From NCBI GenBank assembly GCA_965217895.1, contig CBDCJV010000002.1, forward strand, positions 4,128,001 to 4,192,000: 64,000 nt of DNA, written 5' to 3'. Position 1 is the stretch's first letter; every line of letters starts with the position of its first letter. Made by a program: the position numbers and the translations under genes. The stretch is from Waterburya sp. Lineage in GTDB: Bacteria > Cyanobacteriota > Cyanobacteriia > Cyanobacteriales > Xenococcaceae. The notes beneath the pieces are model-generated. The model was not told where the DNA came from. It saw only the letters and a program-made list of their open reading frames with translations, and did not search any database. Positions 6,831 through 48,693 of this stretch are shown here, piece by piece.

Positions 6831-8363
6831 TTAATTAACGCTTCTAATTGCCTCTAATAACCCCCTGGCTTTATTTAAAGTTTCTTGATATTCAGTTTCA
6901 GGCACGGAGTCAGCTACCATTCCTGCCCCTGATTGTACCGAAACCATACACTGATTTTCTTTGTAGGGACGAACAATCATGGTGCGGATAGTAATAGCAG
7001 TATTTAGCTGTCCTTCAAAATCATAGTAACCATAAACTCCAGAATAGGGTCCGCGTCTTTCGGATTCAAGTTCATTGATAATTTCCATAGCGCGAATCTT
7101 GGGCGCGCCACTCACTGTACCTGCAGGAAAACAGGCTTTTAATAAGTCCCAGGCTGTTTTATCAGGTTCTAGTTCACCAATAACATTGCTGACAATGTGC
7201 ATTACATGAGAATAACGTTCGATTACCATTAGTTCATTAACGGTAATGCTGCCTTTAACACAGACACGACCAAGATCGTTTCTGCCTAAGTCTACTAGCA
7301 TGATGTGTTCGGCGACTTCTTTGGGATCTTCTAAAAGATCCTTAGCATAAGCTTCATCTTGGGCTTTGGTTTTGCCACGGGGGCGAGTTCCGGCAATGGG
7401 TCTAAGGGTAGCTTCAATTTTGCCATCGCTTCTAACATCTGCCTTAACCATTACTTCTGGAGATGAACCAATTAGCTGCCAATCGCCAAACTGATAGTAA
7501 CCCATGTAGGGAGAAGGATTAATTAGGCGCAGAGAGCGATACAAGTTGAAAGGATGACCTTTATAAACGGTGGAAAGCTTTTGAGATAAGACAACTTGAA
7601 AAATATCTCCTTTGTAGATATAGTCTTTGGCTTTGGAGACGTTTTCACAGAAAGCTTGCTTATCGGTATTGCTACAGTACACCAGCCCAGAATCAGGACT
7701 ACTGCGACTATCTAAAGATTTCCATTCGAGAGATTTTGCTTCTATAGGCAGAGGTAGCTGTAGCTTGAGCATTAATTTTGTAACGCGATCGCTCGCATTC
7801 TGATATGCTTCTTCTAGGCTAACATCGGCATCTCGTAAGTCCGCATAGGAGATTGCCCAAATCTTGCGTTTTACCTGGTCAAAAATAATTAGATTATCTA
7901 CCTGCATCCAAACTCCATCAGGTAAATCATCCTCTTGGGGGGAATTGACGGGTACACGTGGTTCAATCCAATTGATCAATTCATAGCCCCACACGCCAAA
8001 TAAACCGCCAATACCAGGGGGAAGTTGTGGCAACTTAACTGGTTTGATCGAGGTTAAACAGCGATCGCTAATTTCAAAGGGATTACCTGTATACTCTTTA
8101 ACCGAATTATCTCGATGAGTCTGGATAGTTTTGTTGCCTCTAGCTTCTAGTACCCACATAGGATCGCAGCCCAAAAAGCTATAGCGACCTATTTTTTCTT
8201 CTCCTTCTACAGACTCTAAAAGAAAATTATAGGGTTGACCTGCACATACTTTGTACCAAGCGGACACGGGAGTCTCTAAGTCAGCAACTAATTCTTGATA
8301 TACAGGTATAAAATTACCTTGCTGTGCTAGTTCGGTAAATTGAGCGAAGTTGGGAAAGATCAT
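6831..8363 (-). CDS. trpE: Anthranilate synthase component I
   Basis: FLLESV, GDIFQVVLSQ, NPSPYM, AEHIMLVDLGRND, PAGTVSGAPK. Confidence 0.97.
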   Translation of the reverse strand: MIFPNFAQFTELAQQGNFIPVYQELVADLETPVSAWYKVCAGQPYNFLLESVEGEEKIGRYSFLGCDPMWVLEARGNKTIQTHRDNSVKEYTGNPFEISDRCLTSIKPVKLPQLPPGIGGLFGVWGYELINWIEPRVPVNSPQEDDLPDGVWMQVDNLIIFDQVKRKIWAISYADLRDADVSLEEAYQNASDRVTKLMLKLQLPLPIEAKSLEWKSLDSRSSPDSGLVYCSNTDKQAFCENVSKAKDYIYKGDIFQVVLSQKLSTVYKGHPFNLYRSLRLINPSPYMGYYQFGDWQLIGSSPEVMVKADVRSDGKIEATLRPIAGTRPRGKTKAQDEAYAKDLLEDPKEVAEHIMLVDLGRNDLGRVCVKGSITVNELMVIERYSHVMHIVSNVIGELEPDKTAWDLLKACFPAGTVSGAPKIRAMEIINELESERRGPYSGVYGYYDFEGQLNTAITIRTMIVRPYKENQCMVSVQSGAGMVADSVPETEYQETLNKARGLLEAIRSVN

Positions 8364-39456: not shown

Positions 39457-40417
39457 ATGAGTACCCATAGTACCCATATTGTTACTGGTGTTGTAGGATT
39501 TATTGGTTCTCACTTGGCAGAAACTCTACTGCAACAAGGTATAGGAGTAATTGGTATCGATCAATTTAATGATTACTACGATCCTCAACTCAAAGAAAAA
39601 AATCTAGTTAATTTAAAGCAATTTGCTAATTTCAAATTAATTAAAGATGATCTTGAAAAATTAGATTGGCGGCAGCTTTTGCAGTCAGTTGATGTGGTAT
39701 ATCATCAAGCAGCACAGGCAGGAGTTAGAGCTAGCTGGGGCAAGGGTTTTCTCAACTATACGACCAGAAACATCAATGCTACCCAAATAATTCTAGAAGC
39801 AGCCAAAGATATCAAATCGTTAAAACGAATTGTCTATGCTTCTAGCTCTTCTATTTATGGCAACGCAGCAACTATGCCAACCCCAGAAACTTTGTGTCCT
39901 CAACCTGTTTCTCCTTATGGTATTACCAAACTAGCTGGAGAACGTTTGTGCTGGCTGTATCAGCAAAATTTTGGTGTTACCAGTCACGACCTTACGCTAT
40001 TTTACCGTTTATGGACCGCGCCAACGTCCTGACATGGCATTTCACAAGTTTTTCAAAGCTGCAATTGACGGTGATGCAATCTCTATTTATGGTGATGGGC
40101 AACAAACTAGAGATTATACTTTTGTTAGTGATGTGGTCGCAGCTAATTTGGCTGCGGGAAAGATCCCTGAAGCTATTGGCGAGGTGTTCAATATTGGTGG
40201 TGGTAGCAAAGTAACTCTAATAGAGCTACTTGAAATTATGGAGCGAGTAATAGGACAACCAATACGCAAAAATTATATTGAACGGGCAAAGGGAGATGCA
40301 CGTCACACTAGCGCAGACATAGCTAAGGCTAAGAAAATTTTGGGTTATGCTCCTCAAGTTTCTTTGACTGAAGGTTTGATAAAAGAATGGAAGTGGATTC
40401 AAACTATTTATACTTAG
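39457..40417 (+). pseudogene. NAD-dependent nucleotide-sugar epimerase (UDP-glucuronate epimerase-like) split by a 1-bp insertion at ~39977-39979, or a sequencing error
   Basis: Frame 1 GFIGSH..AAQAGVR..YGITK..QNFGV continues in another frame as PVTTLRYFTVYGPRQRPDMA. Confidence 0.85.
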
Positions 40418-41686: not shown

Positions 41687-43354
41687 TTAATATGTAGATC
41701 GATCTTTTGAAGAAAGTTGATTGATTTTCTCACCTAGTTTTTGTCTAGCAGAATATAAAGTTTCAGGATCTTTTGTCCAATTTAGCCAATTTTTACCAAC
41801 CTCATGAACTGTTTTCATTGTCCAGTCTTTTTCTCCTAATTTTTTGAGCAGGGAAATATATTCATAATCTTCAATACCGTCTCTAATTCTTTTTAAACGT
41901 ATTGAGGGAACAACTCCATTAATGCCGACGGGAGCGCCAGGATAAAGCAGCATTCCCTCTCCAGAAAAATTGCGATCGCCTTGTTGATAAACAGAGGGTT
42001 TACGCCAAGGATCATCAGACCAAAAGGGAAGATTACTATCATCATCACTCCAACCATCAACTTGAGAGTATAAAACTCCTGTTAAACCTAGGCTTTGAGC
42101 TATAAAACCTTGAGGAATACGAAAATTAATTGGTGGAACATCAATCTGCCATTGAGGCGAATATCCAGTTTGATGTCCAGTATAAAACCAGACTTCATCT
42201 CCTTGCTGCATTACCTCGGCAATTTGCTGCTGAGAATCTTGATACATTTGAGGCTGCACTACCCAAATATCCACATCATCATAAAATTCGGGTTTTGGTT
42301 TCATCACCACCAAGTTTTTTGCCCCCGCCTGATGAATATTATGCGCCCATTGCTTAATTGGCTGTTCAATGTTGGGGCATTTATCAATCTCATCAGCAGA
42401 ATAAACAAACTTAAGTAGCTTTGGATCGTATAAGTCAAATGCCTGTTTAATTTCTTCGACATTAGGGGCAGCACTTAATTTACAGGTGCTATAGTTGGCA
42501 CCACTCCAAAAAGGTAAACGAACAGAATTTAAACCCCATCGATCAATCAACTCTTTTTGTTTCTCAGGCTTAATACGCTTACCTGGCATAACCTTATGCT
42601 TGAGCAATTCCTTGATTAAACTTTCTCCCCGATCTTGCCAAGGATTAAAGTAAGAATTCATTGTCGGTTGTAAGGGCAACTCAAAATTCCACACGGTCAA
42701 CTCAATATTGCCCTTGCGTTCTCCGCGATCGCTAGTGACGGTATAAATTCCCTGGTATTTCCCTGGAGGAGTATCTCTAGGTACATATATATCTACCCAA
42801 ATAGGTTGATTTTTGTTTGCTGCTAAATCAAAAGGGACAGCATCAAAAGTTGCCCCTGCAAGATCTTTGCCAGTAGTCGAATCAGCGAAAGGAATTAGTC
42901 CATCAGCATACCAGCCCATGCCTGGAGTAAGATTACCAACCCAGTTTTCAGGACTAGGGCGATCGACATACACATAATGTTCTCGATATAGGGTGATGTT
43001 TTGTGCAGAAATGATCTCTTGGTCGGCGTTACGTAAATCGGATATGGCGACATCAACATTGCTCAGATATTTATTGTTTGATGTTTGAATTACAATTTGA
43101 AAAGATTCATATTCACCCCGAGCAGTCTGTAATTGGATTTTGTTTTTTTGGAGAGAATCGGCTACGCCGTTTTGTTTTAGATGAAAGTTATTTGATAGTT
43201 GATTATTATCTCGACTAATACTTTCTAGGGAGGAAGCTGCCCATATCTTAAAAGAACTAGATACATTAGTGCTTTGAACAACAAAATTATGGGTAAAAAA
43301 TACTACTACCAAAGTCAGTAAAATTAAAATTATGCTTTTAGACGATAATTTCAT
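41687..43354 (-). CDS. Exported DUF4091 / GH123-like putative glycoside hydrolase
   Basis: Signal anchor; ARGEYESFQ, QPIWVDIYVP..TPPGKYQG, ADE, GEGMLLYPG, SIRLKRIRDGIEDYEY. Confidence 0.75.
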   Translation of the reverse strand: MKLSSKSIILILLTLVVVFFTHNFVVQSTNVSSSFKIWAASSLESISRDNNQLSNNFHLKQNGVADSLQKNKIQLQTARGEYESFQIVIQTSNNKYLSNVDVAISDLRNADQEIISAQNITLYREHYVYVDRPSPENWVGNLTPGMGWYADGLIPFADSTTGKDLAGATFDAVPFDLAANKNQPIWVDIYVPRDTPPGKYQGIYTVTSDRGERKGNIELTVWNFELPLQPTMNSYFNPWQDRGESLIKELLKHKVMPGKRIKPEKQKELIDRWGLNSVRLPFWSGANYSTCKLSAAPNVEEIKQAFDLYDPKLLKFVYSADEIDKCPNIEQPIKQWAHNIHQAGAKNLVVMKPKPEFYDDVDIWVVQPQMYQDSQQQIAEVMQQGDEVWFYTGHQTGYSPQWQIDVPPINFRIPQGFIAQSLGLTGVLYSQVDGWSDDDSNLPFWSDDPWRKPSVYQQGDRNFSGEGMLLYPGAPVGINGVVPSIRLKRIRDGIEDYEYISLLKKLGEKDWTMKTVHEVGKNWLNWTKDPETLYSARQKLGEKINQLSSKDRSTY

Positions 43355-43482
43355 AGTTAATTTTATTTTTAACAGCTTCGTATACTTTGAAACAAGCCTT
43401 AAATTGCCAAGCTCTAAACAGTTTTTATGGTTCTAAAATGTGAATTTTAACCGTAAATTAATTAAAATTCGCTACGTTGTTC

Positions 43483-44733
43483 TTAAATGTTTTTGAGGCT
43501 ACTTTGTCGGCTCAGATTCGCCATCACAGCGTAAGATGTCAGCAATAAAAATGAACTCATAGTTGTGTGGCTGAAAAATCCCCATAAGAGTAAAGAAAAT
43601 AAAAATGGGGCGACATTTTTTTTGTGTTCGCCCTGCGCTTTCCAAACACAAGCTAAAAGCAGTAGGGGATAAATTAAAGCACCTAAAAAGCCAAATTCTA
43701 CCATTTGATCTAAGTAAATATTATGGCATCTTTGGGGAACCCCTTCTGCCGTTCGAAAATTGGGGTTAGCTCCTGAACCTAATCCATTTCCGAGAAAAGG
43801 TTTTTTGTTAAATTTAGCCCAAGCTTCTTCAACGTGGACAAGACGTGAATTTTTTGAATCATCCTCTTGTCCTAAAGGATCTAATAAAAAATTAACCCTA
43901 GCCAGAGTTCCTTCATTAAAGAGCGTTGTGCCATCAGCAGTTTTTATATATGTCAAATTATTTATCTGAACTGACAAGATTGTGACCGCCATAAAAGCAG
44001 ATAATAACATTAATGGTATTTGAGAGCGTAGAATAACCTTATTTAAAAGATACAGCAAAACAACCAATCCCCAACCAATCATTGCTCCGCGAGAAAAAGT
44101 GCAGATAATTCCTATAAAGACAAACAAGGCAAAAAATAAACGATATTTAGGCTTAATTAAATCAATACTAAAAATTAATCCCAAAATTAATGCCACTCCA
44201 GCAGTATTGGCATCTTCGTAAAACCCTGAAGATCTTCCTGGAGCGTGTTGGAGTAAATAAAAAGATAGAGGATTAAAAAATTCCCAAATAAACATAAAAA
44301 CATTTGCCAAGGTAATAAACAAAATTGTTAATCTTGTCCATTTTAAGACTATTGAATGTTGAGAAAAAATCAGTAGCATTACAAGTAAAAATAATATCGG
44401 TCTAATCTGATCCTCAAATAGCTGCATATCAGGAATTTGCGGTAAAACTAGAATTGATAGTAAAAGAACTGCCAGATAAAAACCGCACCAAACCACAACG
44501 GGAATAGCAACGTGAATAAAACAATTTAGAATTCCCACAAACACTGGAATTCCAAGCACTATAAACAAAATAAGCCACCACAAAGGAATTCCAAGCCCTC
44601 TTCCTTCTAGATAAACATCTAATTTTGAAAAAAATATTAATATGGCAGCCACCGCCAAAAATCCTTGGTAATAAACTAAAAAAGTTTTTTTGTTTTCTAA
44701 TACTTGCGCTTCATATTTGCTAAAAATAGTCAT
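43483..44733 (-). CDS. O-antigen ligase / Wzy-like polymerase
   Basis: Many TM segments; RSSGFYEDAN, TFSRG, PFLGNG, HNIYL..EFG. Confidence 0.88.
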   Translation of the reverse strand: MTIFSKYEAQVLENKKTFLVYYQGFLAVAAILIFFSKLDVYLEGRGLGIPLWWLILFIVLGIPVFVGILNCFIHVAIPVVVWCGFYLAVLLLSILVLPQIPDMQLFEDQIRPILFLLVMLLIFSQHSIVLKWTRLTILFITLANVFMFIWEFFNPLSFYLLQHAPGRSSGFYEDANTAGVALILGLIFSIDLIKPKYRLFFALFVFIGIICTFSRGAMIGWGLVVLLYLLNKVILRSQIPLMLLSAFMAVTILSVQINNLTYIKTADGTTLFNEGTLARVNFLLDPLGQEDDSKNSRLVHVEEAWAKFNKKPFLGNGLGSGANPNFRTAEGVPQRCHNIYLDQMVEFGFLGALIYPLLLLACVWKAQGEHKKNVAPFLFSLLLWGFFSHTTMSSFLLLTSYAVMANLSRQSSLKNI

Positions 44734-44815
44734 TTGATTAATTAATAATTTATATACAGGATTTATGCAAAAACATTAAACATAGTAGTGAAGGATAATT
44801 AAACTAATTTCATTA

Positions 44816-44896
44816 CCGCCCCAAATACCTCATTACCTCAAACACTACACTACCCAACAGCAGGATAATTTTATTTTCTTTTTACAAACGGTCACT
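44816..44896. repeat. Partial copy of the 31520-31720 element (right arm)
   Basis: caacagcaggataattttattttctttttacaaacggtc matches caacagcaggaaaatttgattttctttttacaaacagtc. Confidence 0.75.
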
Positions 44897-44956
44897 TAGA
44901 GTAGAAAAATAAAGAGTCACGAAACACGATTACATCCCGTATCAGCAATATCTTTA

Positions 44957-45046
44957 TTACTTATTTCTACTTCGCCCTAGTAATTTATTTCGTAATTTCA
45001 AAATGCGATCGCGATATTTAGCTGCTTCTTCAAATTCTAAGCTTTT
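44957..45046 (-). pseudogene. Relic uvrB 3' end (distal copy)
   Basis: Translates [29 protein letters not shown] versus uvr[30 protein letters not shown]. Confidence 0.92.
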
Positions 45047-45157
45047 GCTATTCTTGTTGAGTAGAATAATGTGTTGGTAATCCATAAAGTGACGCGGGAT
45101 AGAAATATTTGTCAACACTGCAATTTCATATGGTCACTTAATTTGATCCGATATCTT

Positions 45158-45613
45158 TCACTTGTGTTTTTCCATGAACACGAACGACATATTTTTGTTG
45201 ATCTTTTCGCTGTTGAATATTTTATATCCGAGACGCTCGTAAAGACTAATATTTCGTTTGCTCTTATGACCAGTAAACAATTCAAAATGCTGTGCCTGCC
45301 CAAAGCATGATTCGATTTGCTCCATGAGTGCCGTGCCAAAACCTTGCCCTTGAAAATCAGGATGAACAATGAGCCTTTCAACATAGCAAATACTTTCCCT
45401 CTGATATCCTCTGACTGAGCCTATAATCTTGCGCTTAACTTGAACCTTTAAGAAAATTTTGCTGATAAAGTCGCTTTTTAACTCGTTTAAAGTTTGTGTC
45501 AACGGTGGAATATTGAAGTCGTTATAAAGTCGTGCCTCGCTCTGATATGCCAACTGTTGCAGTTCGAGAATAGCTGCTGCATCTTCAGGCGAAGCGTATA
45601 TAACGTTTTTCAT
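45158..45613 (-). CDS. GNAT-family N-acetyltransferase
   Basis: LIVHPDFQGQGFG acetyl-CoA motif; NISLYERLGY. Confidence 0.9.
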   Translation of the reverse strand: MKNVIYASPEDAAAILELQQLAYQSEARLYNDFNIPPLTQTLNELKSDFISKIFLKVQVKRKIIGSVRGYQRESICYVERLIVHPDFQGQGFGTALMEQIESCFGQAQHFELFTGHKSKRNISLYERLGYKIFNSEKINKNMSFVFMEKHK

Positions 45614-45860
45614 TAGTTTCAAACATTTTTCTTATTTGAGGAGGAAAAACACTATCGAGTGGAACAGTTTCGCCACTTGCAATTTCTTGTCGTACCATTG
45701 CAGCCATCTGATCCCATTGATCATCAGTCATCGTAGCAAAACTAGTTTCCCATTTGTGTTCATCTTGCAATTCAGCTAGAAGCCGAGATGCGATCGCATC
45801 TTGTTGATCGGGTAGAAGTTTTTCAATTTGAGCGATCGCCTGTTGAAGCAGTTCAGTCAT
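45585..45860 (-). CDS. Small acidic protein resembling cyanobacterial type II antitoxins
   Basis: MTELLQQAIAQI.KL..DQQDAIA..LL.EL.DE.KW..SF pattern. Confidence 0.6.
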   Translation of the reverse strand: MTELLQQAIAQIEKLLPDQQDAIASRLLAELQDEHKWETSFATMTDDQWDQMAAMVRQEIASGETVPLDSVFPPQIRKMFETNEKRYIRFA

Positions 45861-45904
45861 AGTTTCAAATATATATTGCTGAATTTTAATTAAAGCTGTT
45901 TGTT

Positions 45905-45988
45905 TTAAACATTATTCCTATTATTTTTACCCAATAACTTATCTCGTAATTTCAAAATGCGATACTTAGCAACTTTTTGTAATTTTTA
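45905..45988 (-). pseudogene. Relic uvrB 3' end (middle copy, more degenerate, 6-bp deletion in HIP1)
   Basis: Translates [15 protein letters not shown]; aataacttatctcgtaatttcaaaatgcgat is identical to uvrB. Confidence 0.88.
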
Positions 45989-46063
45989 GGCTACGGTAAA
46001 TATCTTTAAGTCATTACTAAAGTTTCGAGTCCGTCCACTGTAAGTCTTGGTTAGCCTACTCCA

Positions 46064-46396
46064 CTAAAATAATGTAAGAATACCAGTAGTTTGGTCGCTA
46101 TTTAATGCCTTAAGATCATCATAATGATTTCGCAAAATTGCTTCAATATTGGCTGTTTTACAGTTGCCTCGTCTAATCCAAATAATTTTGGGTGGAAAGC
46201 CTTTCAATGTACAAATATCGCTAAAATCTGCATCTTTGGTAACAATTAGAAAACCTTCTTTTCGCGCATATTCCCAAACCTCAGTATCTGGAACTCGATC
46301 AAGATTTAAATTGTAAACGTGATTAGAACCAGCATAAATATCTCCCAGGCAATTTATCAATACTGGAGACAAGTTCTGATCGAAAAGCAGTTTCAC
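46064..46396 (-). CDS. PIN-like toxin (DUF5615 / VapC45-like); GTG start overlapping the upstream stop
   Basis: (M)KLLFDQNL, D.EVWEYA, LIVTKDADF, PPKIIWIR.GN. Confidence 0.88.
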   Translation of the reverse strand: MKLLFDQNLSPVLINCLGDIYAGSNHVYNLNLDRVPDTEVWEYARKEGFLIVTKDADFSDICTLKGFPPKIIWIRRGNCKTANIEAILRNHYDDLKALNSDQTTGILTLF

Positions 46397-46617
46397 GCTT
46401 TTATAACCATTAACATTTTTTCTCGGTCGGCAGCATAACTCAGGCAAGCCCGAATGTCGTCCTCAGTTATGTAGGGAAAATCTTCAAGAATTTCTTGATG
46501 AGACATGCCTGCTGCAAGATATTCCAGAATGTCGTAAACTGTAATTCTCATCCCTCGAATACAGGGTTTGCCACTCCGCTTGCCAGGTTCCATAGTTATT
46601 ATGTCTTCGTAGCTCAT
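46393..46617 (-). CDS. DUF433 antitoxin
   Basis: SGKPCIRGMRITVYDILEYLAAG..EILEDFPYITEDDIRACLSYAA; GAGG RBS. Confidence 0.92.
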   Translation of the reverse strand: MSYEDIITMEPGKRSGKPCIRGMRITVYDILEYLAAGMSHQEILEDFPYITEDDIRACLSYAADREKMLMVIKA

Positions 46618-46683
46618 TACTTTTACCTCGCGAAACCATGCTAAGATTTGATTCTAATCTATGGAATTTTTCTAAAGTACTAT

Positions 46684-48693
46684 TTATTTATTACTTTTTC
46701 TCCCTAATAACTTATCTCGTAATTTCAAAATGCGATCGCGATATTTAGCAGCCTCTTCAAATTCTAAATCCTTGGCCGCCTGTTTCATTTTGGCTTCTAG
46801 CTGTTCTATTAAGTCAGGAATCTTTTCTAGGGGCAGATCGTAAGATTTCTCATATACTTCTTCTAGCTGTTCAGAATTCAAACGACGAGAAATATCCAGA
46901 TAAGCCAAGATCGAATTCTCTTCATTCTTGATAATTGGCTTGGGAGTAATATTATGACGCTTATTATATGCCACCTGAATATTGCGCCGTCTTTCTGTCT
47001 CTTCAATCGCCCTTGCCATACTATTAGTCAAGTTGTCAGCATACAAGATTGCCTGTCCTTGTATATGACGCGCAGCCCTACCGATGGTTTGAATAATTGA
47101 ACTTTCTGAACGCAAAAAGCCTTCTTTGTCAGCATCGAGAATTGCTACTAAAGATACTTCGGGTAAATCTAAGCCTTCCCGCAGTAAGTTAACCCCAATT
47201 AAGACATCAAACTCGCCTTTACGTAAAGCCTGAAGAATTTCGATACGTTCAATTGACTTAATCTCCGAATGCAAATACTGTACTTTTACATCTCGTTCGG
47301 CAAAATATTCGCTAAGGTCTTCCGCCATTTTCTTTGTTAGGGTAGTAATTAAAACCCGTTCTTTTTTGGCTACTCTTTCATTAATTTCGCTTAAAAGATC
47401 GTCTACCTGTCCTTCTGTAGGGCGAACCAAGATCTCAGGATCGATTACTCCTGTGGGACGAATAATTTGCTGCGCCACTCGATCTTCTGACTGTTCTAAT
47501 TCCCACTTGGCAGGAGTAGCCGAAACAAAGATGCACTGGCTCACTTTTTGCCAAAATTCATCCGCTTTGAGAGGACGATTATCCGCAGCCGAAGGCAATC
47601 TAAAGCCATGCTCAATTAAAACTTTTTTCCGCGCCTGATCGCCGTTATACATCCCCCGTAGTTGCGGTACAGTAACGTGAGACTCATCTATTACTAGTAA
47701 CCAATCGTCAGGGAAGTAATCTACCAAACATTCAGGAGGATCGCCTGGATTTTTTCCTGCTAAATGTCGAGAATAATTTTCTACGCCATTACAATATCCA
47801 ACTTCTTGTAATAGTTCTAAATCGTATCGACACCTTTGTTCTAATCTTTGTGCTTCTAATAGTTTATTATCAGTCTCAAGTTCAATTAAACGAGCTTCCA
47901 ATTCATCCTTAATATCTTGAATAGCCTTTTCTAATCTTTCTTGGGGAGTAACAAAGTGACGAGCAGGATAAATACTAACACCATTCATACTTTGCAGTAT
48001 CTCTCCCGAAACAGGATCGACATAGCGCAAAGCTTCAATCTCATCCCCAAAAAACTCAATCCGAATAATGCGATCTTCATAAGCAGGAACGATTTCTAAG
48101 ACATCTCCCTTCACCCGAAACCGCCCTCGTTCTAGTTCAATATCATTACGGGAATACTGAACTGTAACCAAATCTCGCAGTAGTTCTCGTTGATTCACTT
48201 CCATGCCTAACTTTAAAGGTACGGCTGCCTTTAAATACTCCGCAGGCATCCCCAAACCGTAAATACAGCTAATTGATGCCACCACAATGACATCTTTGCG
48301 TTCAAAAAGCGATCGCGTTGCCGAGTGACGCAACATATCAATCTCGTCGTTGATTGAGGCCGTTTTTTCAATATAAGTATCGCTAACGGGAATATATGCC
48401 TCTGGCTGATAGTAATCGTAATAGCTTACAAAATACTCCACCGCGTTATCAGGAAAAAATAGACGTAACTCGTTACACAATTGAGCAGCTAAAGTTTTAT
48501 TGTGTGCCAGAACTAAAGTCGGCTTCTGCACATTGCTAATCACGTTGGCGATCGAAAAAGTCTTACCTGTACCTGTTGCCCCTAATAAAGTCTGGAAGCG
48601 GTTGTTTGCCTGTAATGACTCCGTTAATTGCGCGATCGCACTGGGCTGATCTCCTTGGGGTTCAAAAGGTGCTTGCAGATTAAATAAGCTCAT
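46684..48693 (-). CDS. uvrB: Excinuclease ABC subunit B
   Basis: [45 protein letters not shown]-terminal UVR domain. Confidence 0.99.

Follow-up and report, generated by a model that had tools for sequence, protein, structure and literature searches.

Displaced gene ends behind uvrB and 22 other genes of a Waterburya genome: integrase-free cassettes, duplicated tails and a link to HIP1

We analysed a 64,000-nucleotide stretch of a Waterburya sp. genome, hereafter the window (G000:C2:4128001-4192000, G000 being the genome under study, with two contigs and 5.29 Mb). In this window, the intact uvrB gene is followed by two displaced copies of its own 3' end, and small genes lie between the copies. 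Together with 22 further genes showing the same structure, this makes a total of 27 displaced tails of 40-200 bp behind 23 unrelated genes of G000. The structure is real and general in this genome and is a likely case of insertion-duplication; its main interest is a natural link to HIP1, the octamer palindrome GCGATCGC. Genome-wide, HIP1 marks the start of the displaced copy at about half of the loci, a point missed by an earlier reading made from the letters of the window (the sequence-only reading). In what follows, a displaced copy of a gene's tail is called a relic, and the small genes between gene and relic are called cargo or a cassette. Labels of the type G0xx designate other genomes compared, L0xx loci, and X2 and X3 sequencing runs.

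The distal uvrB copy aligns without gaps to the resident gene (44957-45040 against 46684-46767; 84 nt, 88% identity) with its stop codon in register. Over 30 codons we counted 7 synonymous and 4 non-synonymous codon differences, the same figures as in the sequence-only reading, which had also located both copies. When aligned to the uvrB alleles of G020, G019 and G023, the distal copy extends over 93 nt, as far as 45049. The second displaced tail, the middle copy, occupies about 45905-45985; its left part is degenerate and its HIP1 was removed by a 6-bp deletion. The idea that both relics lose similarity at one common point just beyond HIP1 had therefore to be abandoned. Local alignment scores were 128 and 76 for the two copies, against 42 and 31.5 for opposite-strand and reversed controls, and both copies exceed chance.

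Domain searches agreed with the proposed cargo: a DUF433 gene with a DUF5615 (PIN-like) gene in cassette B, and a GNAT gene with an open reading frame (ORF) of 91 amino acids (aa), without curated family match, in cassette A. The homologue of this orphan gene in G031 (76 aa) is accompanied by a ParE-like partner, which is missing from cassette A. As already remarked from the sequence, neither cassette contains an integrase or transposase; the closest tyrosine recombinase lies 65 kb away from the distal relic. Promoter and terminator scans stayed at chance level, Rfam gave no match, and no inverted repeat was listed inside the tail repeats, which are coding tails (no attC model was run).

Table. 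Features of the uvrB array and its border (positions in the window)
Feature	Position	Strand	Remark
uvrB, intact, 669 aa, host gene	46684..48693	-	Pfam UvrB, UvrB_inter, Helicase_C, UVR
Resident uvrB tail (duplicated segment)	46684..46776	-	last codons unlike those of nearest relatives
HIP1 in uvrB tail, YRDR codons	46732..46739	.	same place in 36/37 genus loci
Cassette B, DUF433 antitoxin-type gene	46393..46617	-	also in G023, same position
Cassette B, DUF5615 (PIN-like) toxin-type gene	46064..46408	-	also in G023
Middle relic, including 35 nt beyond stop (45905)	45870..45985	-	sequence alignment
Cassette A, orphan antitoxin-like gene	45585..45860	-	76-aa homologue behind uvrB in G031
Cassette A, GNAT acetyltransferase	45158..45622	-	domain match
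Upstream region and first 7 codons of second, truncated DUF433 gene	45065..45152	-	right end of cassette A
Distal relic, apparently chimeric	44957..45049	-	HIP1 at 45005-45012
Small dispersed repeat past the array, ~85 bp	44811..44905	.	16 matches in G000, many in relatives; probably not part of the mechanism

Alignment to the alleles of relatives indicates that both uvrB relics are chimeric. The 28 nt to the left of HIP1 in the distal relic match the G030 allele at 28/28 positions (best of 39 alleles); over the last 30 nt, agreement is 29/30 with G017 and 16/30 with G030. In the middle relic, the degenerate left part is common to the relic in G023, and the right part with the 35 nt past the stop shows 81% identity over 94 nt to the relic of G030. 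The distal relic would thus be foreign on its left and native on its right, and the middle relic old on its left and foreign on its right, with both foreign halves apparently matching the uvrB region of a single relative. The middle copy had been described as the more decayed one, which does not account for a right half matching another allele. Finally, the truncated DUF433 region has 91% identity to a DUF433 start lying 1.1 kb behind uvrB in G030. Since three segments match G030 in this way (distal left, DUF433 stub, middle-relic right), cassette A can be read as derived from the DNA downstream of a G030-like uvrB, with one end opened in the gene tail and the other cut within a DUF433 gene. 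The two relics fit the reciprocal products that would be expected of one crossover near HIP1.

These matches suggest a history. Cassette B would have come first, being common with G023 at about uvrB's own divergence: in G023, cassette B and the degenerate left of the middle relic are in place (89.9% over 764 nt, compared with ~91% for uvrB), and the relic there ends like the distal copy of G000 and is followed by a MatE gene. A circle carrying cassette A might then have crossed over near HIP1 into the old relic of B, producing the middle and distal chimeras. Alternatively, A may have arrived first and B later, as a ready-made unit. The earlier suggestion that events did not follow a simple sequence may be right: a single crossover into a pre-existing relic is enough to explain both chimeras. 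Separately, the DUF433 stub and the distal relic share a reading frame (44957-45085, minus strand). The resulting 42-aa ORF, so far predicted only, retains the upstream region of DUF433 and terminates with the C-terminal helix of UvrB; the chance of being in frame is one in three.

The extent of the phenomenon in G000 was assayed by two scans. ORFs were called mechanically (4727 retained, 3520 of them of at least 450 nt), and the last, first and middle 120 nt of these 3520 were searched against the genome. Multi-copy matches and matches within other ORFs were removed, and a copy had to be intergenic and within 10 kb. A same-strand copy was present downstream for 21 tails and upstream for 2, as against 10 upstream (several weak) and 3 downstream for heads, and 1 downstream and 0 upstream for gene middles. 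An opposite-strand downstream copy was found for 0 of the 3520 tails. One of the 21 downstream cases was a whole paralogue and was discarded. The second scan was an unbiased, independent self-comparison of chromosome C2, which displayed 24 tail-downstream, 6 tail-upstream, 6 head-upstream, 3 head-downstream and 11 mid-gene pairs, with 0 inverted tails. The union of both scans forms the curated set of 27 copies at 23 genes. Host genes include those for UvrB, MutS, Mfd, CysS, ClpB, UppP/BacA, a SpoU methylase, Mg-chelatase/CobN, a MobA-like protein and transporters. For the host gene at L051, the label GshA was unsupported and was dropped: no Pfam family was assigned and only a weak DUF1156 match was obtained.

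The search for other genes with 3'-end duplicates, which had been put forward as a check, was thus positive at 22 genes, and an attachment site specific to uvrB is rejected. The proposal of an integron-like array survives in part: arrays were built repeatedly and without an integrase, but not at one uvrB-specific site with a single shared boundary, as 22 other genes carry the structure too and the boundaries at uvrB vary. Further tail copies were noticed outside the curated set. A decayed copy of the chelatase-gene tail lies at G000:C2:4677912-4678066, and several copies form a longer array at the chelatase gene of L223 (G008:C20). Fragments of the putP-like tail lie off the gene in G020, G019 (two copies) and G017 (L072, L073, L074), three of them beginning at HIP1 or a one-change variant.

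Cargo domains were scanned at 18 of the 22 loci other than uvrB. The 43 cargo ORFs comprise toxin-antitoxin genes, methyltransferases, one GNAT, regulators, one reverse transcriptase and unknowns; integrases, recombinases and transposases account for 0 of the 43. G000 encodes 10 tyrosine recombinases, only one of which lies within 30 kb of any relic, outside the cassette. This one, 1.8 kb past the L045 relic, was rejected as a driver, since it sits in backbone common to the empty-site genome.

Remnants of ordinary integrative elements (prophages or genomic islands) at gene 3' ends, with their integrases lost, might also leave such structures. Elements that use an integrase and exchange the 3' end of a protein-coding gene for their own are known, for instance e14 and phage 21 at icd, and toxin-antitoxin and restriction-modification pairs are cargo typical of mobile DNA. 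This origin is nevertheless very improbable: the 23 target genes are unrelated, the 43 cargo ORFs contain no integrase remnant, and a uvrB tail duplication in a genome of another family (L038, G045; 186 nt), young given its 99% identity, encloses an ApaLI-like restriction-modification pair only, with no integrase. The uvrB tail was also absent from the viral contigs searched (1 match, not uvrB) and from the plasmids searched, where only cargo genes matched. On these scans, a phage or plasmid carrier of the uvrB tail was rejected.

Differences between relics and resident genes indicate where the relics come from. Across the 27 copies, single-base codon differences were synonymous in 123 cases and non-synonymous in 93, with 22% expected to be synonymous (p 4e-28; at 35% expected, p 4e-11). 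The uppP relic matches the tails of G023 and G020, which are empty-site alleles, at 117-118/122 positions, and resident uppP matches at 105-106/119. Because of this bias and of best matches to alleles of other genomes, the relics are former functional tails of other alleles and not decayed local copies, as the sequence-only reading had supposed for uvrB.

Ten loci, each taken whole, were searched against five close genomes. An empty site, with one tail and adjacent flanks, was recovered at 6/10: uppP (G017, G020), the putP-like gene (G020, G023, G017), L045 (G017), L051 (G035), the first SpoU cassette (G019) and the MobA-like locus (four genomes). The target tail was therefore duplicated without loss at these six sites. 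At L051, the only such case, the two cassettes occur in opposite order in G000 and G035, and the tails travel with their cargo (119/128 versus 105-113/128).

These data also bear on the simplest alternative, in which a gene end is duplicated locally in tandem, decays and receives unrelated cargo, or in which the array is a misassembly. Short tandem copies of gene ends do occur, as at L156 with a spacing of 42 nt. However, the synonymous bias, together with relics that match the alleles of other genomes better than the resident gene, refutes local duplication for most loci. Empty sites, and the presence in G023 of cargo B with its relic, argue in the same direction. Three unitigs of run X2 moreover tile positions 43500-46735 with 0 differences. 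This run is possibly the source sample, so that its support is not independent. In X3, a run belonging to a different study, one contig contains cassette A and the left portion of the distal relic; it shows 12 differences across 44977-45723 and then continues into other sequence. Local duplication or misassembly is the least probable of the explanations considered.

Chromosome C2 holds 5798 HIP1 octamers, or about one per 900 bp. At the inner boundary of relics, HIP1 was found far above chance. In the C2 self-comparison, 11/24 pairs had a HIP1 no more than 6 nt from the gene-inward boundary, and 1/24 had one at the outer boundary (background 2.0%). In the curated set, HIP1 was present from -12 to +6 nt of the relic start at 13/23 genes (background 2.6%, p about 1e-10), and inside or adjoining the duplicated segment at 17/23 (background 17%). 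On inspection by eye, the boundary coincided with a HIP1 in the resident copy for 9 genes and with a HIP1 present only in the relic for 2; the remaining 2 of the 13 were ambiguous (uvrB middle copy, cysS). In seven relics the first base is that of a complete HIP1, and three start inside the motif. HIP1-started tails lie beside their own gene: among tail fragments located over 10 kb away from the gene they derive from, only 1/21 starts at HIP1, from which it follows that homology targets the events. Block ends between G000 and relatives coincided with HIP1 at 11/139 (against 1.0%), a count left out as support because these loci had been chosen for their relics.

On the cargo side the picture is less uniform. 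In G017, the putP cargo runs to a HIP1 exactly at the joint and diverges after it. At chlH, the chelatase gene, HIP1 is absent from the cargo side in three donor-like genomes, and the joint abuts the GATCGC of the tail; thus a full HIP1 in a relic can be secondary. A cargo-side HIP1, seen once and contradicted once among five loci inspected (the others being uppP, mfd and L045), was rejected as a rule. Microhomology was present at both joints, in the form of HIP1 at putP and of a short AT-rich match adjoining GATCGC at chlH.

A host recombinase acting in trans on pairs of HIP1 sites could move HIP1-bounded cassettes in the manner of an integron integrase. It would account for relics that begin with HIP1 to the base, for the HIP1-bounded ectopic putP tails in G019 and G020 and for the swapped order at L051. 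The 10 tyrosine recombinases offer candidates, and site-specific recombination at HIP1 in PCC 7002 is cited in the available part of PMC4390886. Such an enzyme would not be expected to leave 10/23 loci without HIP1 at the joint, three relics starting inside the motif, or chlH donors without a second HIP1. Moreover, HIP1-started tails occur almost only beside their own gene, so homology must be needed and not the 8-bp site alone. We consider this explanation improbable.

Two side observations concern HIP1. The mirror case occurs at L105, where the 5' end of uvrB is repeated ahead of the gene (7793-7880) and this copy stops exactly at HIP1; that uvrB is followed by a tail relic as well. Inserts of 21-27 nt resembling SDR5, a label given by this resemblance, lie between the third and fourth base of HIP1 within relics of uvrB (L008, L017, L037) and at G000:C2 ~2161080. 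The accessible portion of PMC5861425 reports SDR5-type repeats only in Nostocaceae.

Relatives were examined for the same pattern behind uvrB. Named loci with a UvrB at least 91% identical bear labels such as Pleurocapsa, Waterburya, Myxosarcina or Hyellaceae, which makes the host a Pleurocapsales-type cyanobacterium. Among 36 genus genomes, 8 have their own relic, two of them weak (scores 49 and 52; controls at most 38.5), and several contigs end early. Four of the eight relics start at or inside HIP1, one of these with its left end hidden by a small repeat; three start 72-88 nt before the stop, and one is decayed. As the sequence-only reading had anticipated, cargo behind uvrB varies, from a HicA-type pair to a ParE-like pair with a group II-type reverse transcriptase and small ORFs of unknown nature. 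A pattern scan gave at least 117 loci. Among the matches listed, 69 uvrB loci had enough flank (~54 outside the family), and four relics were found among these: three known genus loci and one 42-nt tandem copy. In 700 kb of G040, from another family, one tail-downstream pair starts inside HIP1 (98%), one 7 nt before HIP1 (uvrA, 96%) and one has no HIP1. A search with the uvrA tail in 151 genomes gave one second copy, in G070, among the matches listed. Thus, the pattern is firm in this genus, and its presence beyond the genus is suggested. Independently of relics, G035 contains two divergent full-length uvrB genes (L005 and L036), probably a sign of contamination, for which the record gives 5%. 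At L017, the stretch +1178..+3692 after uvrB holds a tandem series of six paralogous ORFs, each of ~110 aa, that match Frankia_peptide weakly.

On balance, we lean towards an origin of the array by integrase-free insertion-duplication, in which a break, circularisation and a single crossover in the tail follow one another and HIP1 is a frequent site of the break. DNA of a relative carrying a gene end and its neighbouring genes would be taken up, probably by natural transformation; G000 has a ComEC-family gene with an intact frame. The incoming fragment would be broken inside the tail, often at a methylated HIP1 or GATCG, closed into a circle and integrated by one RecA-type crossover in the 40-200 bp of tail homology. 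Selection would let only gene-restoring events survive, hence tails downstream and fewer heads upstream.

Several observations weigh against this break-circle-crossover route. Tails of 40-90 bp are short for RecA-type recombination, and no circle or excision joint was observed among assembled contigs. HIP1 is missing from the boundary at 10/23 genes, neither relic of the window starts at it, and cargo matches at uppP and mfd end 10-25 nt before it; the chlH donors described above lack it as well. The left side of the uvrB chimera offers only 2-4 informative sites, and site-by-site allele patterns at seven other loci are mixed, with no clean crossover. No empty site was seen in the five close genomes at 4/10 loci (uvrB, glcD-like, chelatase, clpB; clpB relics are also present in G023 and G019). 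In G040, three tail-upstream pairs stand against the three tail-downstream pairs, and one cargo contains an ISL3 transposase. Finally, 400 kb of G023 yielded no real relic where about 2 were expected.

The most serious competitor is a linear one-arm capture, a variant of homology-facilitated illegitimate recombination (HFIR), in which donor DNA would pair with the body of the gene, upstream of the tail, and its other end would be joined to the recipient chromosome within the tail, at a nick or a microhomology that is often HIP1, with no circle. It yields an identical map, and its long upstream homology avoids the short-arm problem. HIP1 could serve as an 8-bp GC-rich microhomology, HFIR joints being marked by 3-10 bp microhomologies in the text of PMC3240628 at hand, and at uppP and L051 the entire relic looks recipient-type. 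However, the linear route predicts a wholly recipient relic, and the left part of the distal uvrB relic matches the donor-type allele. Sliding identities upstream of the boundary showed no clear step and hence no visible donor patch, with low power. Canonical HFIR, proposed as one route by the sequence-only reading, couples insertion with deletion of recipient DNA of similar size according to the same partial source; here the target is duplicated, with no loss at the empty sites. We regard linear capture as rather unlikely. Since HFIR deletes, and since the partial duplication known from Escherichia coli came from re-circularised DNA, the route by break, circle and crossover is favoured.

A bolder reading, possible and somewhat doubtful, is that HIP1 is the programmed break or joint site of integrase-free gene capture in nature, in which methylated HIP1 of incoming cyanobacterial DNA would set the cassette ends and any conserved gene end bearing HIP1 would serve as a reusable landing site. 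If true, HIP1-rich genomes would be a distributed integron with hundreds of potential sites, and HIP1 would have a concrete role in horizontal gene gain. Junctions of this natural kind may also account for the arrival of toxin-antitoxin pairs, and of other small genes that lack mobility functions, at new sites in cyanobacteria. For engineering, they suggest integration through one arm of short homology. Across genomes, joints are predicted to follow the HIP motif, including in lineages with another motif. The function of HIP1 thereby becomes directly testable, including by a simple bench assay.

Outside the array, the window contains O-antigen-ligase-like and GH123-like genes behind it (41687-44733). 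They are absent from the four closest genomes searched, which points to a variable surface-polysaccharide region. At 39457-40417, a gene that we take to be NAD-dependent epimerase-like from its motifs seems split over two frames (39457-40032 and 39971-40417).

Comparison with known systems places the relics closest to insertion-duplication. As described in the available part of PMC3240628, E. coli conjugation can leave a partial duplication (109-950 bp) of the homologous locus through a single crossover of re-circularised, partly degraded DNA. The likeness lies in the partial target duplication around foreign DNA, with one boundary set there, and presumably here, by the circle-closing joint; in our loci, too, part of the homologous target is directly duplicated around the insert. 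Unlike the E. coli case, a rare laboratory product of an engineered plasmid, the relics are natural, affect 23 housekeeping genes over 40-200 bp and have a motif-enriched boundary. With HFIR they share the lack of an integrase and the use of homology at one end; their other end would likewise be an illegitimate or microhomology joint. They differ in their duplicated target.

The icd-type elements similarly restore the gene with their own tail and leave the old tail at the far end, and here, too, uvrB is intact, and the native allele is what the uppP relic and the right end of the distal uvrB copy represent. Those elements have their own integrase and one target; our loci have no integrase and many unrelated targets. 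An integron would be resembled in the different order of cassettes (one case, L051), but no IntI-type integrase lies in or beside the uvrB array or among the 43 cargo ORFs. Effector-immunity arrays of the Vibrio type VI secretion system (T6SS) and orphan modules of Rhs and contact-dependent inhibition (CDI) systems, as presented in part of PMC5361080, are also integron-like arrays without a known integrase, with serial displacement behind a conserved anchor and the displaced 3' end kept. Their hosts are polymorphic toxins, as far as this source goes, and the variable end is the point of swap, whereas the hosts here are conserved housekeeping genes with a neutral tail and a motif-marked joint.

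HIP1, the most abundant octamer of cyanobacterial genomes, has so far owed its recombination role to a few laboratory events. Those found in partly available sources are an smtB deletion between HIP1 sites (PMC13756078), plasmid recombination at HIP1 in PCC 7002 (PMC4390886), SDR5 insertion at HIP1 (PMC5861425) and increased integration in PCC 7002 when the homology arm carries a homologous HIP1 (bioRxiv 10.1101/2024.09.10.611283). The accessible text of the first, third and fourth of these calls the function of HIP1 unresolved. Our literature search, with most subscription journals and all supplements outside its reach, found no account of HIP1-bounded gene gain with tail duplication. HIP1 at recombination joints and homologous HIP1 promoting integration are common to those events and to ours. 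The earlier ones, as far as these sources describe them, concern deletions, events on plasmids, tiny repeats or engineered constructs with two arms, and none is a natural gene gain with tail duplication. The junctions in G000 are natural, and HIP1 starts about half of 23 independent gene-gain scars in this one genome.

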